Shown here: in pieces, positions 38,867 through 45,311 of the stretch
Numbering within the stretch: the stretch's first letter is position 1
Layout of the letters: each line of letters begins with the position of its first letter
Program-made: the position numbers and the translations under genes
IMG/VR virus record: IMGVR_UViG_2541047596_000003
Length of the DNA stretch: 64,000 nt
Source: a virus
Taxonomy: Duplodnaviria; Heunggongvirae; Uroviricota; Caudoviricetes
Reading direction: 5' to 3' (one strand)
Notes under the pieces: generated by a model
Database searches by the model: none
What the model was told of the DNA's origin: nothing
The model's input: only the letters and a program-made list of their open reading frames with translations

Positions 38867-39043
38867 TTACTGCTTTCTGTATATCAGGCCATTATCAAGC
38901 AATGTTTGCATGTGTTCGCGATCCATGCCGCTTGATTCCCAATGTGGATCGTCATCAGGTCTTATCATCACCTTATTACCTTTAAGTAAATAGACGATGT
39001 TAAATACCTTATGCAAATAGATGCCGTCTTCGATCTCGTTCAC
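38867..39043 (-). CDS. Hypothetical small protein, paralog of the 39040-39222 product
   Basis: GTG start overlapping upstream stop (GTGA); shares IEDGIY... N-terminus with upstream gene; under 60 aa so absent from ORF track. Confidence 0.3.
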   Translation of the reverse strand: MNEIEDGIYLHKVFNIVYLLKGNKVMIRPDDDPHWESSGMDREHMQTLLDNGLIYRKQ

Positions 39044-39222
39044 AGGTCGCTAACCTTCACCACGTCGCCGTTATAAAGCATGATTTCAATTATTTCCCGC
39101 GTCATATCCATGAATGGCTCTTTCCACTCGCCACCATCGATACTGATACGAATATCATTACCCTCCACGCGGTAAAACATTTCATCAATGAGGTTCACGG
39201 CGTATATACCATCTTCAATCAT
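39040..39222 (-). CDS. Hypothetical small protein
   Basis: ORF-track ORF on operon strand, tightly packed. Confidence 0.4.
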   Translation of the reverse strand: MIEDGIYAVNLIDEMFYRVEGNDIRISIDGGEWKEPFMDMTREIIEIMLYNGDVVKVSDL

Positions 39223-39447
39223 TTAATCGCCCTCTTTAAACATCCTGAACTTAATATCGCCAATCTTGCTCCAATGTCCGTGATTAAACATCGTGATAAC
39301 TTCTTTCGCTGTCACAGGTAAAACCGTTTCATGCCACGGTTCAAACTGGCGTGATCGCATCATTACGTGTTCACCTTCAAGGCGATAATAAGCGCGTGAC
39401 ACCAATGACTGATAAACGCCGTCATATTGATGGTCGCTATTTCCCAT
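39223..39447 (-). CDS. Hypothetical small protein
   Basis: ORF-track ORF on operon strand, tightly packed. Confidence 0.4.
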   Translation of the reverse strand: MGNSDHQYDGVYQSLVSRAYYRLEGEHVMMRSRQFEPWHETVLPVTAKEVITMFNHGHWSKIGDIKFRMFKEGD

Positions 39448-39637
39448 TTTTACGCTCCTTAATGGCTCGCTTAATCTGCACTAGCGTTGCATCGAAGAAA
39501 GCGATAAACACCGCTACAGGCCAGAAAGGAATCTCAAGGCCACCACGATCGAGATCGTTATATTTGATGAAACAAGACATCAGGATAGCGCCAGCGATAT
39601 AAAGGAGAAATACAGCAAAGATAAGACATTCAATCAT
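39437..39637 (-). CDS. Small membrane protein (2 TM)
   Basis: Hydrophobic ORF on operon strand. Confidence 0.4.
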   Translation of the reverse strand: MIECLIFAVFLLYIAGAILMSCFIKYNDLDRGGLEIPFWPVAVFIAFFDATLVQIKRAIKERKNGK

Positions 39638-39772
39638 CCTCTTTCTCCCCGCCTAAATGTTGATATATTTTTTCAGCATTTTCCCCGCGCTCAAAACAAT
39701 AATGCTCAAACATGCGCCAGTGTTCACTAAGAAACATAACAATAAACTTGTTTACGTATTCGTCATCCATCG

Positions 39773-40084
39773 TTAATCATCCTCTTCATCGTCTTCTTGT
39801 TCAGCTAGGAAATCATCGACAGAACAGTAAGTAACTGGCGGGATATATTCGAAGTCATCCGTATCAAGATCGAGCGTCCTGCTGTCGCCGTCGTCGTCAA
39901 TCGTATTCATTCCTAACTCACCGAAAGGGCCGTACCCAATGTGGCCCAGGTATTCGCAACCAATCGTAAACCCAGGGTATTCGCCTTTACACCGGATTTT
40001 GTAAGGTTTATTTGATGCGCTCAATTTCCGACCCTCCACTTTCTGCTTCAGTGATTTTGTATTCTGCCGCCAGTTCAGCGCCAA
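39773..40084 (-). CDS. Hypothetical acidic protein (start uncertain)
   Basis: ORF overlaps upstream gene by 77 nt, so true start is probably internal. Confidence 0.3.
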   Translation of the reverse strand: MALNWRQNTKSLKQKVEGRKLSASNKPYKIRCKGEYPGFTIGCEYLGHIGYGPFGELGMNTIDDDGDSRTLDLDTDDFEYIPPVTYCSVDDFLAEQEDDEEDD

Positions 40085-40331
40085 GCAATTCCACTTCCAT
40101 ATTAGCGATACCCTGGAACATCAGATAGGCAAAAACTAGGCTTTTAATTCTATCCGGGTCTTCAAGATGGTCTGCATTAAAAGGCGGTTCCGATACGTGG
40201 AAGCATTTAACATGCGCATCGTCTTCAGTGGCTACACGGAAACATGCGCCAGGTTGCCCGGCGAATTCCCCCAATCTTTCTTCGTTCGGTAAAGTACCAC
40301 GGAAAACTTTAACGCTGATAAATTTAGTCAT
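40008..40331 (-). CDS. Hypothetical protein
   Basis: ORF-track ORF on operon strand. Confidence 0.4.
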   Translation of the reverse strand: MTKFISVKVFRGTLPNEERLGEFAGQPGACFRVATEDDAHVKCFHVSEPPFNADHLEDPDRIKSLVFAYLMFQGIANMEVELLGAELAAEYKITEAESGGSEIERIK

Positions 40332-40334
40332 TGT

Positions 40335-40589
40335 TTATTCTCCTTCGTAAAGAGTTGCCACCAGTTCGGCATCTGTTAGCGTGTTATAATCTGTATAAAA
40401 CCCGCAACGCATAAGTGAAGAAAGGCCAGCCACTTTGCACCACATAGGGGTCGATTCGCTCAAATATTCATTCTCCCTTTTTTCGCTGTATTCCAGTTCA
40501 TAAAACCGACTATTGTTAACACTCTCAATTACACGGCTGTATGTGCCATCAAGCCTACTAACTCCGCGCCATAGTCTGATCACAACCAT
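40335..40589 (-). CDS. Hypothetical protein
   Basis: ORF-track ORF on operon strand. Confidence 0.4.
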   Translation of the reverse strand: MVVIRLWRGVSRLDGTYSRVIESVNNSRFYELEYSEKRENEYLSESTPMWCKVAGLSSLMRCGFYTDYNTLTDAELVATLYEGE

Positions 40590-40778
40590 AATTTCTACTC
40601 CGTTTGATGGGGCTATTCGGCCCCGTGTTTATTCTTCTTCTCCTCCTCTAAATCCTAAGCACTCCGCGTATTCGTCAATGCTTAATGCTTCTTCACCTGG
40701 TGCCAATACTTCAAAGTAGCGGGCGTATAGTTCGAAAACCCAGGCCGGATATTTAGCGTTAGCGTTCATGGTTCCCCC

Positions 40779-43562: not shown

Positions 43563-43918
43563 GATTTATCACCGTAGATCTTGAATAGTTCACACGCTTT
43601 CTGATCTTCAAATATATTCATATGCAGGTCACGCAGACGGCGCATTGTTCGGAATCGCGGTCTAAACTCCTGGCTCCGTTTAATGTATTTGCCGCCAATT
43701 GAATAAATATGCCCGTATGAATACCATCTATTCCCTACCCATATTTCATATTCTTTGCCTTCGTAATTGAATTTTATCGTTAGCTCGTCCACTTCAACTA
43801 TTAACCCTTTATCAATGATGCCATTAAGCATTTCGTCCCATTCTTTCAGGAATGGATGCTGATAAAAACCGAAAAGCGTATTTGCAGCGTGGCAAAGGTA
43901 ATCAATGATTATTTGCAT
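43553..43918 (-). CDS. Hypothetical protein (121 aa)
   Basis: ORF-track ORF, operon strand. Confidence 0.4.
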   Translation of the reverse strand: MQIIIDYLCHAANTLFGFYQHPFLKEWDEMLNGIIDKGLIVEVDELTIKFNYEGKEYEIWVGNRWYSYGHIYSIGGKYIKRSQEFRPRFRTMRRLRDLHMNIFEDQKACELFKIYGDKSWN

Positions 43919-44138
43919 ATTCCCACCTTCTCAATATGTAGTAAATGTTATCGTAAGCTATATTATCCGCATCTTCCTGTGTTATATGTCTGGCATCAAA
44001 AAAGAAATCAGCGTCGTGCCATACATGAAAAAGAAGTCGCGCGAATTGTCTGCGGCGGCGCTTACTGCGTGATAGTTCGTTAAATTCTATTAACGCTTTA
44101 TCATATGCTCTTATCATGCGCTTACGGTTACTTTTCAT
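43902..44138 (-). CDS. Hypothetical basic small protein, paralog family B
   Basis: MKSNRKRMIRAYDKALIEF... paralogous to the adjacent 44143-44343 product. Confidence 0.45.
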   Translation of the reverse strand: MKSNRKRMIRAYDKALIEFNELSRSKRRRRQFARLLFHVWHDADFFFDARHITQEDADNIAYDNIYYILRRWEYANNH

Positions 44139-44142
44139 ATTG

Positions 44143-44343
44143 TCACCACATCATATAGTAAACGTTATCATCTGCTAATTCGTCTGCGTCTCTTTGGCAG
44201 TCGATTGTCGCATCATCTTCGTGCCATTCTTTAGCAAATAAACGCGCCCATTTACGACGCTCACGTTTATTGTGCCGCAGGTCACTAAAAACCATTAAAG
44301 CCTTGTCGTAAGCTCTTACCAGGCGTTTCATTCTACTTTTCAT
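44143..44343 (-). CDS. Hypothetical basic small protein, paralog family B
   Basis: MKSRMKRLVRAYDKALMVF... tandem paralog. Confidence 0.45.
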   Translation of the reverse strand: MKSRMKRLVRAYDKALMVFSDLRHNKRERRKWARLFAKEWHEDDATIDCQRDADELADDNVYYMMW

Positions 44344-44549
44344 TTTTCACCCTTCCTTAATTCCTTAATTTCAATATTGCGTAACCGGACGTCGCACGGC
44401 GTTTCAGATTTACCAGTAAGCGCCAGCGTCAGGTTTTCAGGTGTCGTGTAAAGAATTATCTCTTTACCAGTGCTAAATTTAATTTCTATGCGGATCTCGT
44501 TTTCATCACCGCACAATACGCGGCTAATTGACAGGCCAGCTTTTTTCAT
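44340..44549 (-). CDS. Hypothetical protein
   Basis: ORF-track ORF, operon strand, coupled. Confidence 0.4.
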   Translation of the reverse strand: MKKAGLSISRVLCGDENEIRIEIKFSTGKEIILYTTPENLTLALTGKSETPCDVRLRNIEIKELRKGEK

Positions 44550-44562
44550 TGCTCAACAAACC

Positions 44563-44862
44563 TTAAAATCTGTATTGCCAGTAAATATCACACTTTATTG
44601 CAAATACCTTCACCGGATCAGGGCCGAATAGTGGATGTTGAATCAACTTGATTTCGTACCCCATGTAAGGCAATACGATAATCCGGTCTTTCTCATCATC
44701 CGATGGATAACCCCATTTAATGATTAATCTTGTGTACTCCCGCCCCTCCAGGCGTTTACGCCAGTATTCATTGTAAAGCCGGTATTCTTCCACCTTCTTT
44801 CCCGCCCGGATGGCGTGGAAGTATTCACCTTTTAAATTCAAATGTAAGTGTTTATTTGCCAT
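44563..44862 (-). CDS. Putative ASCH/DUF3850-like protein (99 aa)
   Basis: N-terminus H..L...YF.AI..GKK..E.R resembles ASCH-type fold signatures; assignment from memory only. Confidence 0.4.
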   Translation of the reverse strand: MANKHLHLNLKGEYFHAIRAGKKVEEYRLYNEYWRKRLEGREYTRLIIKWGYPSDDEKDRIIVLPYMGYEIKLIQHPLFGPDPVKVFAIKCDIYWQYRF

Positions 44863-45121
44863 CGCTATGATCCTGTAAACAGTCGTTATAGCCTTCGATG
44901 TATCCGGTTAATCCTGTGTTACTTACTGACCAATCAGCCGAACGGCGCTTGATGGCCTTGTCCATAGTCATCTCGTCACCTGGCCCGCCTGGCTCGATGT
45001 ATTTTCTTAAATCCCTTACTATCCACGCCCTTAATTGTTGCGTATCACTGCACACACGCGCCGTTAATGTCAGATTATTAACCAGCTTTGCGAATAGATG
45101 TTCTTTTAATTTAGGCTTCAT
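44852..45121 (-). CDS. Hypothetical protein
   Basis: ORF-track ORF, operon strand. Confidence 0.4.
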   Translation of the reverse strand: MKPKLKEHLFAKLVNNLTLTARVCSDTQQLRAWIVRDLRKYIEPGGPGDEMTMDKAIKRRSADWSVSNTGLTGYIEGYNDCLQDHSDGK

Positions 45122-45311
45122 CCTTCACCTCGCGACGATAGATTTCTACTGGCTTAACCGGAATAGCGTTAAAATCCCCTTCATCCAGTGCGGCAATAAA
45201 CGTTAGCGCCAACCGTGCTTCAACACCGCTTAAATACTTGCACCATGCCTCACCGTTATAATCTTCAAAAAGAATAATCACTTTTTTCATGTTTATCTCT
45301 TGTTGTTTCAT
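45111..45311 (-). CDS. Hypothetical protein
   Basis: Start overlaps stop of the Cys-rich Q-like gene. Confidence 0.4.
   Translation of the reverse strand: MKQQEINMKKVIILFEDYNGEAWCKYLSGVEARLALTFIAALDEGDFNAIPVKPVEIYRREVKDEA

Follow-up and report, generated by a model that had tools for sequence, protein, structure and literature searches.

An ordered array of small accessory genes between the Q gene and the lysis cassette of an mEpimmI-type prophage in Escherichia coli M1/5

Background

The subject of this report is a block of small genes on the minus strand of a 64-kb stretch of viral DNA (IMG/VR record IMGVR_UViG_2541047596_000003; the whole of its 64,000 nucleotides is called the window throughout). 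The block, at 38867-45311, lies between the gene for a Q-type late antiterminator and the lysis cassette, and it represents the array of accessory genes that follows Q in a temperate siphophage of the mEpimmI type, resident as a prophage in Escherichia coli M1/5. The mEpimmI (mEp021-like) phages have been described as Nus-dependent, non-lambdoid temperate siphophages of the human gut, and the M1/5 prophage is among the 48 genomes that define the group (PMC11893012). The genes of the array are hypothetical in that work, where the only comment on them concerns flexible genes in variable regions.

Several known arrangements resemble this array in part. The nin region of phages lambda and P22 holds the same kind of dense, coupled and largely dispensable small genes, within a rightward operon that is antiterminated through N, and shows the same whole-gene insertions and deletions (indels) between relatives. 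In Stx and other lambdoid phages, the interval from Q to the holin gene S likewise carries extra genes (stx, tRNAs, nanS-p); such Stx cargo is located downstream of the late promoter and terminator, PR'/tR', and is Q-dependent. Morons, a concept reportedly set out by Juhala and colleagues in 2000, are promoter-gene-terminator units expressed from prophages. Phage accessory regions and anti-defence islands (Silas et al., bioRxiv 10.1101/2023.04.06.535777) likewise place variable small genes between core genes, and they share with the array uncharacterised, often acidic products and a few families that occur in unrelated phages too.

The array is not a new kind of system, and it is a reasonable place to seek host- or defence-interacting proteins. 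What we add is the evidence for selection on each gene, the fixed-order presence/absence structure, the placement of the late module, two internal elements, and a predicted Gp54-like fold.

Results and Discussion

A prophage of the mEpimmI group

The window is 100% identical to the E. coli M1/5 chromosome (NZ_CP053296.1; CP053296). Its nucleotide identity to phages mEp044, mEp010, mEp554, mEp013, mEp021, mEp515 and MagusPhagus is patchwise 84-86%, and this similarity, together with the synteny shared with mEp021-type genomes and the presence of M1/5 in the published member list, places the prophage in the mEpimmI group. Because of that membership the phage is not a classical lambdoid one, and the lambdoid framing of a preliminary description of this DNA has to be given up: a post-Q array of 2-6.8 kb is a trait of the mEpimmI family. 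Among 5,426 complete E. coli genomes, 35 match the block and only 7 of these cover at least 80% of it.

Along the minus strand lie, in this order, ninG, rusA, an open reading frame (ORF) of 60 amino acids (aa), Q, the array, holin, lysozyme and Rz, with ninF, ninG and rusA directly upstream of the Q/array region. From ninG through rusA and Q into the first array gene the ORFs overlap, without a gap and in the same orientation, and the Q stop codon abuts the start of that gene. The flanking genes are as follows.

45311-46039, minus strand: Q-type late antiterminator, 242 aa (phrog_127, 3e-80; Pfam PF03589, 1.5e-32; DnaJ-type zinc finger)
37359-38509, minus strand: lysis cassette, with holin at 38309-38509, lysozyme at 37817-38308 and Rz/Rz1 at 37359-37847 (RefSeq and mEp021 annotation)

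Twenty-eight small genes under selection

The preliminary description had reported about 28 tightly packed small ORFs on the operon strand, and we arrived at the same number. Twenty-seven head-to-tail minus-strand ORFs of 46-121 aa occupy 38867-45311, and there are 28 small genes in 38617-45311 once a 75-aa gene next to the holin gene (38617-38844) is counted; we refer to them as o27, beside Q, down to o01, and o00. The overlaps are as frequent as had been stated, occurring at 13 junctions and being of the ATGA type at six. Only two gaps exceed 35 nucleotides (nt), one of 98 nt (41058-41155) and one of 39 nt (40590-40628), and a GGAG/GAGG-type ribosome-binding site (RBS) precedes nearly every start codon.

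To follow these genes among relatives we collected 46 loci from IMG/VR by way of their Q protein, plus mEp021 and mEp044; 47 loci have both Q and the holin gene. Selection was assessed with pooled Nei-Gojobori ratios of nonsynonymous to synonymous substitution (dN/dS) among orthologues, both in the frame of each called ORF and in the other two. All 27 ORFs had in-frame ratios of 0.06-0.44, whereas shifting the frame gave ~0.7-3.3. The preliminary description had named a lack of conservation as the outcome that would speak against the ORFs; all 27 prove to be under frame-specific purifying selection. PHROG families, every one of unknown function, matched 25 of the 28 genes (24 of the 27 listed ORFs, and o00), leaving three without a match. 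The genes of the array are listed here in the order of the operon.

45111-45311, minus strand: o27, 66 aa; phrog_35000; 27/47 loci; dN/dS 0.19
44852-45121, minus strand: o26, 89 aa; phrog_29262; 40/47 loci; dN/dS 0.26
44563-44862, minus strand: o25, 99 aa, ASCH-like; phrog_625; 37/47 loci; dN/dS 0.11
44340-44549, minus strand: o24, 69 aa; phrog_1222; 18/47 loci; dN/dS 0.14
43902-44343, minus strand: o22 (78 aa) and o23 (66 aa), tandem basic paralogs; both phrog_8758; dN/dS 0.21
43553-43918, minus strand: o21, 121 aa, near-core; phrog_16975; 46/47 loci; dN/dS 0.10
43332-43562, minus strand: o20, 76 aa, core, counterpart of mEp021 gp38; phrog_38280; 47/47 loci; dN/dS 0.14
43088-43321, minus strand: o19, 77 aa, near-core, the most constrained array gene; phrog_30442; 46/47 loci; dN/dS 0.06
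42804-43091, minus strand: o18, 95 aa, precisely excisable cassette; phrog_33175; 29/47 loci; dN/dS 0.13
42580-42807, minus strand: o17, 75 aa; phrog_5009; 39/47 loci; dN/dS 0.11
42360-42575, minus strand: o16, 71 aa, core, orthologue of mEp021 gp41; 47/47 loci; dN/dS 0.14
42112-42363, minus strand: o15, 83 aa, core; phrog_38609; 47/47 loci; dN/dS 0.12
41156-42109, minus strand: o14 (71 aa), o13 (85 aa), o12 (79 aa) and o11 (74 aa), tandem predicted small beta-barrels
40779-41057, minus strand: o10, 92 aa, acidic; phrog_7287; 17/47 loci; dN/dS 0.23
40629-40769, minus strand: o09, 46 aa, acidic; phrog_22232; 30/47 loci; dN/dS 0.13
40335-40589, minus strand: o08, 84 aa; phrog_32200; 31/47 loci; dN/dS 0.27
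40008-40331, minus strand: o07, 107 aa; phrog_23107; 43/47 loci; dN/dS 0.37
39773-40024, minus strand: o06, 83 aa from a probable TTG start at 40024, very acidic C-terminus; phrog_25234; 36/47 loci; dN/dS 0.21
39630-39770, minus strand: o05, 46 aa, acidic; phrog_15754; 9/47 loci; dN/dS 0.25
39437-39637, minus strand: o04, 66 aa, predicted membrane protein (peak 19-residue Kyte-Doolittle hydropathy 2.59); phrog_10061; 40/47 loci; dN/dS 0.44
38867-39447, minus strand: o03 (74 aa), o02 (60 aa) and o01 (58 aa), paralogs; all three phrog_15318; dN/dS 0.22-0.39
38617-38844, minus strand: o00, 75 aa, the 28th gene; phrog_23715 (1.6e-55); 7/47 loci

RefSeq (PGAP) annotates 22 of the 28 genes and omits o00 (38617-38844), o08 (40335-40589), o12 (41377-41616), o14 (41894-42109), o16 (42360-42575) and o22 (43902-44138). 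The omitted genes are under purifying selection, and the orthologue of the virion-detected mEp021 gp41 is one of them. RefSeq also carries o06 in a truncated 45-aa form. Judging from its sequence, o06 probably starts at the TTG at 40024 rather than at 40084: the phrog_25234 alignment begins at residue 21 of the long ORF, and the orthologues mostly begin at the same TTG, with GGAGGG in front of it. For the last gene a 91-aa frame from a TTG was considered and rejected, the dN/dS being 2.99 there and 0.14 in the +2 frame. On account of the latter value, although it comes from only 3 distinct sequences, and of the phrog_23715 match, we take the 75-aa frame to be the true o00 gene.

Variable content in a fixed order

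The Q-to-holin interval ranges from 2,003 nt in mEp021 to 6,801 nt in the window, which has the longest of the 47, with a median near 5.5 kb. Clustering of the 935 interval ORFs gave 43 families, 31 of them present in at least three loci, and the window holds 26 of these 31. The 47 loci display 40 gene-content configurations with 8-28 genes each, and there are 0 order inversions among 667 co-occurring family pairs. Only o20, o16 and o15 are universal (47/47), while o21 and o19 occur in 46 of 47 loci; the other 23 of the 28 genes are absent from some fully functional relatives, and mEp021 forms plaques with 8 interval genes. Content that varies in this way between conserved flanks is that of an accessory region, and we conclude that the block is a genuine accessory array, conserved and strict in its order, and that it typifies an already published group of phages.

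The pan-genome comparison that had been suggested for this interval thus finds conserved ORFs in about 31 recurrent families across 47 loci. It also bears on the likening of the block to a hypervariable early region: the array is accessory, varies in content and resembles early regions of small genes, as had been supposed, but recurrent families in a fixed order do not amount to hypervariability.

How genes come and go can be seen by comparing 41 distinct intervals with the window. The o18 indel, of 284 nt, falls exactly at the gene borders and is found in 17 of the 41; the o03 indel (224-225 nt) is found in 23. The o05 indel (140-143 nt) has a 12/13-nt junction repeat, and similarly clean whole-gene indels affect o24, o13, o10 and the 250-nt o00 cassette. 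A 220-nt indel drops one copy of the o22/o23 pair, which is single in most loci. Some relatives have a ~305-nt insertion of an additional family at the hairpin at 40603. This GC-rich hairpin (GGGGC-N6-GCCCC, 40590-40628, -10.4 kcal/mol) marks the slot of the ~305-nt gene in at least 15 compared relatives; the window has the hairpin and not the gene.

An 11-bp exact direct repeat, GCCGTATTTGT (38855-38865 and 38605-38615), flanks the ~250-bp o00 cassette, and mEp021 has a single copy of GCCGTATTTGT and no cassette, which fits insertion or deletion by short-homology recombination. We also observed an 18/20-nt match between the o00 coding sequence (38796-38815) and the loop side of an internal hairpin module (41108-41127), with a rough p of ~0.05 that is borderline for chance. 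Cassette junctions in general share only short similarity in the context of the RBS and ATG; we found no repeat family at them and no integrase adjacent to the array. Because there is neither a repeated recombination site nor an integrase, an integron-like or repeat-mediated cassette system was rejected, the junctions showing generic RBS/ATG microhomology and no attC-like repeats. Content would instead change as whole genes are lost or gained at short microhomologies around the RBS and start codon, as tandem paralogs cross over unequally, and as related phages recombine homologously.

A proposed late promoter module downstream of the array

The Q protein aligns over its full length with those of lambda, P22 and HK022 at ~34% identity (tblastn, E 1e-32) and with that of phi80 at 32%. 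In these four phages the late promoter follows Q within a few tens of nt and combines a -10 hexamer, a -10-like pause element at about +1 to +7 and a terminator close by. The P22 late promoter reads TAAATT-tgactc-AACGAT, with tR' annotated from +31, and lambda has the same hexamers; phi80 pR' reads TAGATT-catctc-T-AACGCT, and SE1Spa, which has the closest Q outside the mEp phages, has a similar TAACAGT element and terminator. In lambda, P22 and phi80, whose Q proteins are 32-34% identical to ours, the module consists of a -10 element, 6-7 nt, (T)AACnnT and a strong terminator within ~25-50 nt. We found a candidate of this design, in the same compact form as in P22, just ahead of the holin gene.

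38534-38600, minus strand: proposed PR'/qut/tR', with a -10 element TAAAAT (38580-38585), a pause-type element AACAAT (38567-38572) and a terminator (38534-38552)

The segment before the holin gene is near-invariant in 47 of 47 loci and reads AAACAAnnGATTAAAATAnTnnCTAACAATGCGAAA, then CCCGG-loop-CCGGG-TTTTTG, with a fixed stem and variation in the loop only. In every locus the signature TAAAAT-N7-AACAAT and its terminator precede the holin start codon by ~60-75 nt. A search for TAAAWT-N6-7-AACRAT gave one match in the 64-kb window, at 38567-38585 (0.25 expected on both strands), and exactly one in each related locus, at the same position; the known PR' of lambda and that of P22 are matched as well. 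There is no lambda-type PR' signature elsewhere in the window. The hairpin at 38534-38552 is a strong intrinsic terminator (-18.1 kcal/mol) whose mEp021 equivalent is annotated as TERM_5, and we infer that TERM_5 is the terminator 't5' listed as experimentally demonstrated (PMC11893012). We propose, from these signatures, that PR'/qut/tR' is at about 38534-38600, between the array and the holin gene. Compared with the modules of lambda, P22 and phi80, this one is detached from the Q gene, has a weak and non-conserved -35, and has a Q-binding element that is unrecognisable by sequence. Rather than directly following Q, it is separated from the Q stop codon by 6.8 kb and 28 genes (2.0 kb in mEp021).

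We also considered, and rejected, a late promoter within the 3' end of Q, where neither a motif nor synonymous constraint was seen. The gene after Q varies between loci, and the last 60 Q codons have average or higher synonymous diversity; for these reasons we do not believe that a conserved promoter or qut lies inside the end of Q. Elsewhere in Q, codons 91-108 (45716-45769) have the lowest synonymous diversity of the gene (0.06, against a mean of 0.21). They lie roughly where P22 and lambda bear the antisense a23/paQ promoter, and no clear CII-type TTGC-N6-TTGC site is present there. A generic promoter scan was uninformative: it listed fewer sites than in shuffled sequence and missed both candidate promoters described in this report.

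Because the signature of late promoter, qut and terminator is downstream of the array, right before the holin gene, the array is probably early and Q-independent; it would extend the N-antiterminated early operon rather than being Q-dependent late cargo. The earlier comparison with stx-type cargo was for this reason misleading, since the only PR'-like signature is downstream of the array and not ahead of it; moreover, only o25 and o24 have homologues in Stx phages, and there in the early ea22/eaa region. The likeness to the nin region is closer, in that the array is co-oriented and coupled without interruption with the early rightward operon, upstream of the PR'-like module. It differs from the nin region in being downstream of Q, which it parts from its site of action by 2-6.8 kb, and family and domain searches returned no nin-family match among the 28 products.

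The array is translationally chained to ninG-rusA-Q and is upstream of the proposed late promoter module, and would for these reasons form the last part of the delayed-early rightward operon. A nutR2 site upstream of ninF is known from the literature. Polymerase modified by the N-like antiterminator Gp17 may then read past Q and the internal hairpins to the terminator before the holin gene. Q would be loaded at the PR'-like site, which immediately precedes that terminator, and so turn on the lysis and structural genes.

Two conserved elements within the array

Two non-coding elements stand out inside the array, and both fit an operon that needs antitermination. A search of Rfam over 36-48 kb gave no match.

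43284-43303, minus strand: terminator-like hairpin and U-run within o19 (AAGCGGGAUAAAACCCGCUUUUUUGUU; -16.5 kcal/mol, z -5.0)
41058-41155, minus strand: conserved non-coding module that divides the array, with a palindrome (41139-41154), a hairpin (41099-41132), TTGTTT (41116-41121) and TGtTATAAA (41093-41101)

The o19 hairpin is GC-rich, lies near the 5' end of the gene and is followed by UUUUUUGUU. It is near-invariant at the nucleotide level in all loci, with flanking codons that vary synonymously; its 10-codon stretch has 6% of the gene-mean synonymous diversity, the lowest of the well-sampled stretches of the array. This synonymous invariance suggests that the RNA or DNA itself has a function here, for example as an attenuator, a terminator or a processing site.

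The module at 41058-41155 occurs in 34 of 47 loci, irrespective of which genes flank it, and is annotated as a terminator in mEp044. Its promoter-like TTGTTT is separated by 17 nt from an extended -10-like TGtTATAAA, and the two together overlap a 13-bp hairpin (-16.7 kcal/mol, z -4.4). Upstream of these is a palindrome with the core of the CRP consensus, TGTGATCTGTATCACA (TGTGA-N6-TCACA), which is unique in the window (0.03 expected by chance). The palindrome is perfect in ~19 loci, the window included, and the other ~15 of the 34 modules keep one half-site. Its centre is ~60.5-61.5 nt upstream of the start predicted from TTGTTT-17-TGtTATAAA, and a centre at about -61.5 is the spacing of Class I CRP promoters.

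Products, paralogs and a predicted fold

Among the array products Pfam gave only a sub-threshold ASCH match (o25, E 0.01, under the curated cut-off), NCBIfam and PADLOC gave no match, and phmmer with all 27 products, concatenated, against PDB sequences gave none at E<=1. By these searches there is no recognisable counter-defence gene in the array. Of the 27 listed products 15 have an isoelectric point (pI) below 6; among the ten distal ones (o01-o10) there are 8 such proteins.

Relatives outside the mEpimmI group were present in the phage collection for four families only: o25, o24, o10 and o22/o23. For o25 and o24 they lie in the early accessory region (ea22/eaa) of phages that include Stx and P22-like ones; the o25 homologues, in lambdoid and P22-like phages, are 55-60% identical and some are labelled ASCH or RNA-binding, and o24 homologues are found in virulent siphophages of ~45 kb as well as in Stx phages. 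Homologues of o10 (61% identity) occur in the small-gene arrays of rV5-like myophages, and relatives of o22/o23 in Sasha-like Salmonella siphophages. In each case examined, the outside relatives lie in runs of small hypothetical genes.

Three paralog families had been described before. The two-member basic family at 43902-44343 is confirmed, o22 and o23 being 49% identical (E 4e-22). We observed in o22 and o23 the arginine-rich stretches RSKRRRRQFAR and HNKRERRKWAR, which are reminiscent of the arginine-rich RNA-binding motifs of N/Nun-type proteins. The family beside the holin gene (38867-39222) is likewise one of paralogs (phrog_15318; hhalign 96%), but it has a third member, o03 (39223-39447), in addition to the two that had been named. 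The proposed four-member family at 41156-42109 holds firmly for o12 and o14 (hhalign 96%, E 4e-9) and only marginally for o11 and o13, which join that pair at E 4e-4 to 9e-4 over 42-53 columns, with a probability of 23-36%; control pairs of unrelated proteins align at similar E-values over 4-23 columns. The pattern F..G..Y...D..G..W is common to o11-o14 in the alignment. Designed 'Cake' propellers that appeared as PDB matches of the four-paralog profile were rejected as repeat-driven, with per-domain E-values >90.

A structural model of o14 (predicted local distance difference test, pLDDT, 80) matches Gp54 of phage Bas11 (PDB 9AXB), and shows the six-stranded barrel with a long beta1-beta2 loop by which Gp54(Bas11)-like proteins are recognised. 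Sequence homology of the o14 family to Gp54 was not detected (hhalign probability 0.3%; a family profile search of the PDB did not return 9AXB), and the predicted likeness is thus likely one of fold and not of family membership. Gp54 is a non-essential trigger of CapRel-SJ46 (PMC11578894), and its gene also lies within a small-gene array, in Bas11 (MZ501085.1, region 13738-15368). Activation of CapRel by o11-o14 is hypothetical. Among viral models (BFVD), Foldseek matched this fold to many small proteins from T1-like phages at template modelling (TM) scores of 0.7-0.78. The barrel is apparently common among small uncharacterised proteins of these T1-like phages (Drexlerviridae), some of them of 127-268 aa, and several matches come from one genome (e.g. 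vB_EcoS_NBD2), a parallel to the tandem paralogs o11-o14.

The o16 product is 93% identical to mEp021 gp41, which is annotated as 'virion structural protein' and was detected by mass spectrometry in CsCl-purified virions (PMC11893012). Its AlphaFold2 model (pLDDT 88) had no convincing neighbour in the PDB by structure comparison. At the C-terminus (42360-42410) the last ~17 residues (KRPANLEEEMLI.EV) are invariant even where relatives are only 45% identical overall, and the protein occurs with two alternative endings, in 71-aa and 82-aa forms; this may reflect a recombination boundary inside the gene or constraint from the overlapping o15 start. Both o14 and o16 belong to families too narrow for deep alignments, with 9 and 54 sequence clusters, respectively, among 5.8 billion, and every match with a named source is from E. 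coli.

Interpretation and alternatives

Our best explanation, to which we assign a probability of about 0.55, is that the block is a post-Q early accessory array, with the transcription and the evolution proposed above. Its products would be dispensable, individually exchangeable accessory proteins that most plausibly bind host or defence components early in infection. The set would be made up mostly of small acidic proteins, plus one membrane protein, one ASCH-like protein, the basic arginine-rich paralogs and the Gp54-like beta-barrel family, while the core five (o21, o20, o19, o16 and o15) may serve a more general phage function. The timing of expression, the independence of Q and the biological role are what we infer here; an anti-defence or host-takeover role is plausible by analogy, given the position, dispensability and composition of the array.

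A number of points weigh against this explanation. By sequence, no product matches a known anti-restriction, anti-CRISPR or anti-CBASS protein or any other solved protein. The array keeps one gene order and draws on a modest repertoire (43 families in 47 loci), unlike anti-defence islands with their rapid turnover, from which it also differs in having no known counter-defence marker and a small, strictly collinear repertoire in which no unrelated genes compete for one slot. Strong purifying selection is as compatible with conserved phage functions as with host-directed ones, and the presence of the mEp021 gp41 orthologue in virions hints at a structural or packaged role. The early timing in this phage group is read solely from sequence signatures; the proposed PR' has a weak -35 (TTGTAG), in whose place ~8 loci have unrelated sequence, and the terminator-like hairpins within the array would suit a Q-antiterminated late transcript equally well.

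There is next to no chance that the ORFs are over-called non-coding sequence. Six genes skipped by PGAP and three with no PHROG match could be cited for over-calling, yet frame-specific purifying selection on every ORF, the skipped ones too, already refutes it, and the ribosome-binding sites, the coupled starts and the proteomic evidence for the o16 orthologue (PMC11893012) speak against it as well. A more serious contender concerns timing. If the late promoter lay at or inside the end of Q, the array would form the first part of the Q-modified late transcript, as stx does, and the pre-holin element would be one more terminator to be read through. That would agree with the place of the array between Q and the lysis genes, with internal terminator-like hairpins that an antiterminated polymerase would ignore, and with the mEp021 gp41 orthologue in virions (PMC11893012), which suggests a protein present late. 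We judge it quite improbable all the same, because a lambda-type PR' signature is found in the window only before the holin gene, because the post-Q gene varies and the last 60 codons of Q have normal or high synonymous diversity, and because the triplet of -10, pause element and terminator, at which Q loads in lambda, P22, phi80 and SE1Spa, is here downstream of the array.

Two further possibilities are each unlikely, though less so than late transcription. The products may mostly serve housekeeping or fine-tuning of the phage (replication, packaging, lysis timing, virion-associated functions), with the variation in content reflecting redundancy. Strong purifying selection, the invariant order, five families in 46-47 of 47 loci and the mEp021 gp41 orthologue in purified virions (PMC11893012) are all consistent with this; what counts against it is that 23 of 28 genes are missing from some fully functional relatives, mEp021 having only 8 interval genes, that no similarity to known replication, packaging, lysis or structural families was found, and that several families have counterparts in the accessory arrays of virulent phages unrelated to this one. 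The distal half (o10-o00, 38617-41057) could, as a secondary possibility with about the same modest chance, be a moron-like operon, expressed from the prophage in lysogens under carbon limitation by a CRP-activated sigma-70 promoter in 41058-41155 and ending at the pre-holin terminator; this would be compatible with early lytic expression. Like a moron, the distal half is bracketed by a promoter-like/hairpin module, with a terminator-like hairpin ahead, and by a strong terminator at its end, and the perfect CRP palindrome, unique in the window and at Class I spacing from the predicted start, the retention of the module in 34 of 47 loci independently of its neighbours, and the pI below 6 of 8 of the 10 products o01-o10, unlike those of the proximal half, point the same way. 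It differs from morons in having 11 genes instead of one or two and a promoter that is predicted only. The palindrome is moreover intact in only ~19 of 34 modules, the generic promoter scan did not list the site, and the promoter-like elements coincide with the hairpin and T-run, so that they may be conserved for termination alone.

Returning to the early accessory array that we favour, we can also sketch a bolder version of it, which we consider unlikely: an early 'interaction toolkit' between Q and the Q loading site, with ~30 fixed-order small proteins, among them tandemly diversifying Gp54-like barrels and a virion-packaged protein, that would inhibit or decoy immune sensors (CapRel-type), the distal half being CRP-driven in lysogens as well.

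Significance

Six real genes, the orthologue of a proteomically detected protein among them, are absent from the RefSeq annotation of this prophage. No known copy of this compact set of uncharacterised small proteins, each backed by evidence of selection, is fuller than that in the window (26 of 31 recurrent families); the phage group it comes from reportedly equals lambdoid phages in its frequency in human gut samples. Since nature already provides variants with and without almost every gene, the related loci are a good panel for screens of counter-defence and host toxicity. Through the predicted fold, paralogs of a temperate phage would be tied to Gp54, a known trigger of bacterial immunity and the one protein of this rare barrel type that has been characterised. 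If the order Q-cargo-PR' is true, the lambda-type late switch tolerates kilobases between the gene of the activator and its target, and this order would give a sequence rule that separates early from late cargo in prophage annotation.

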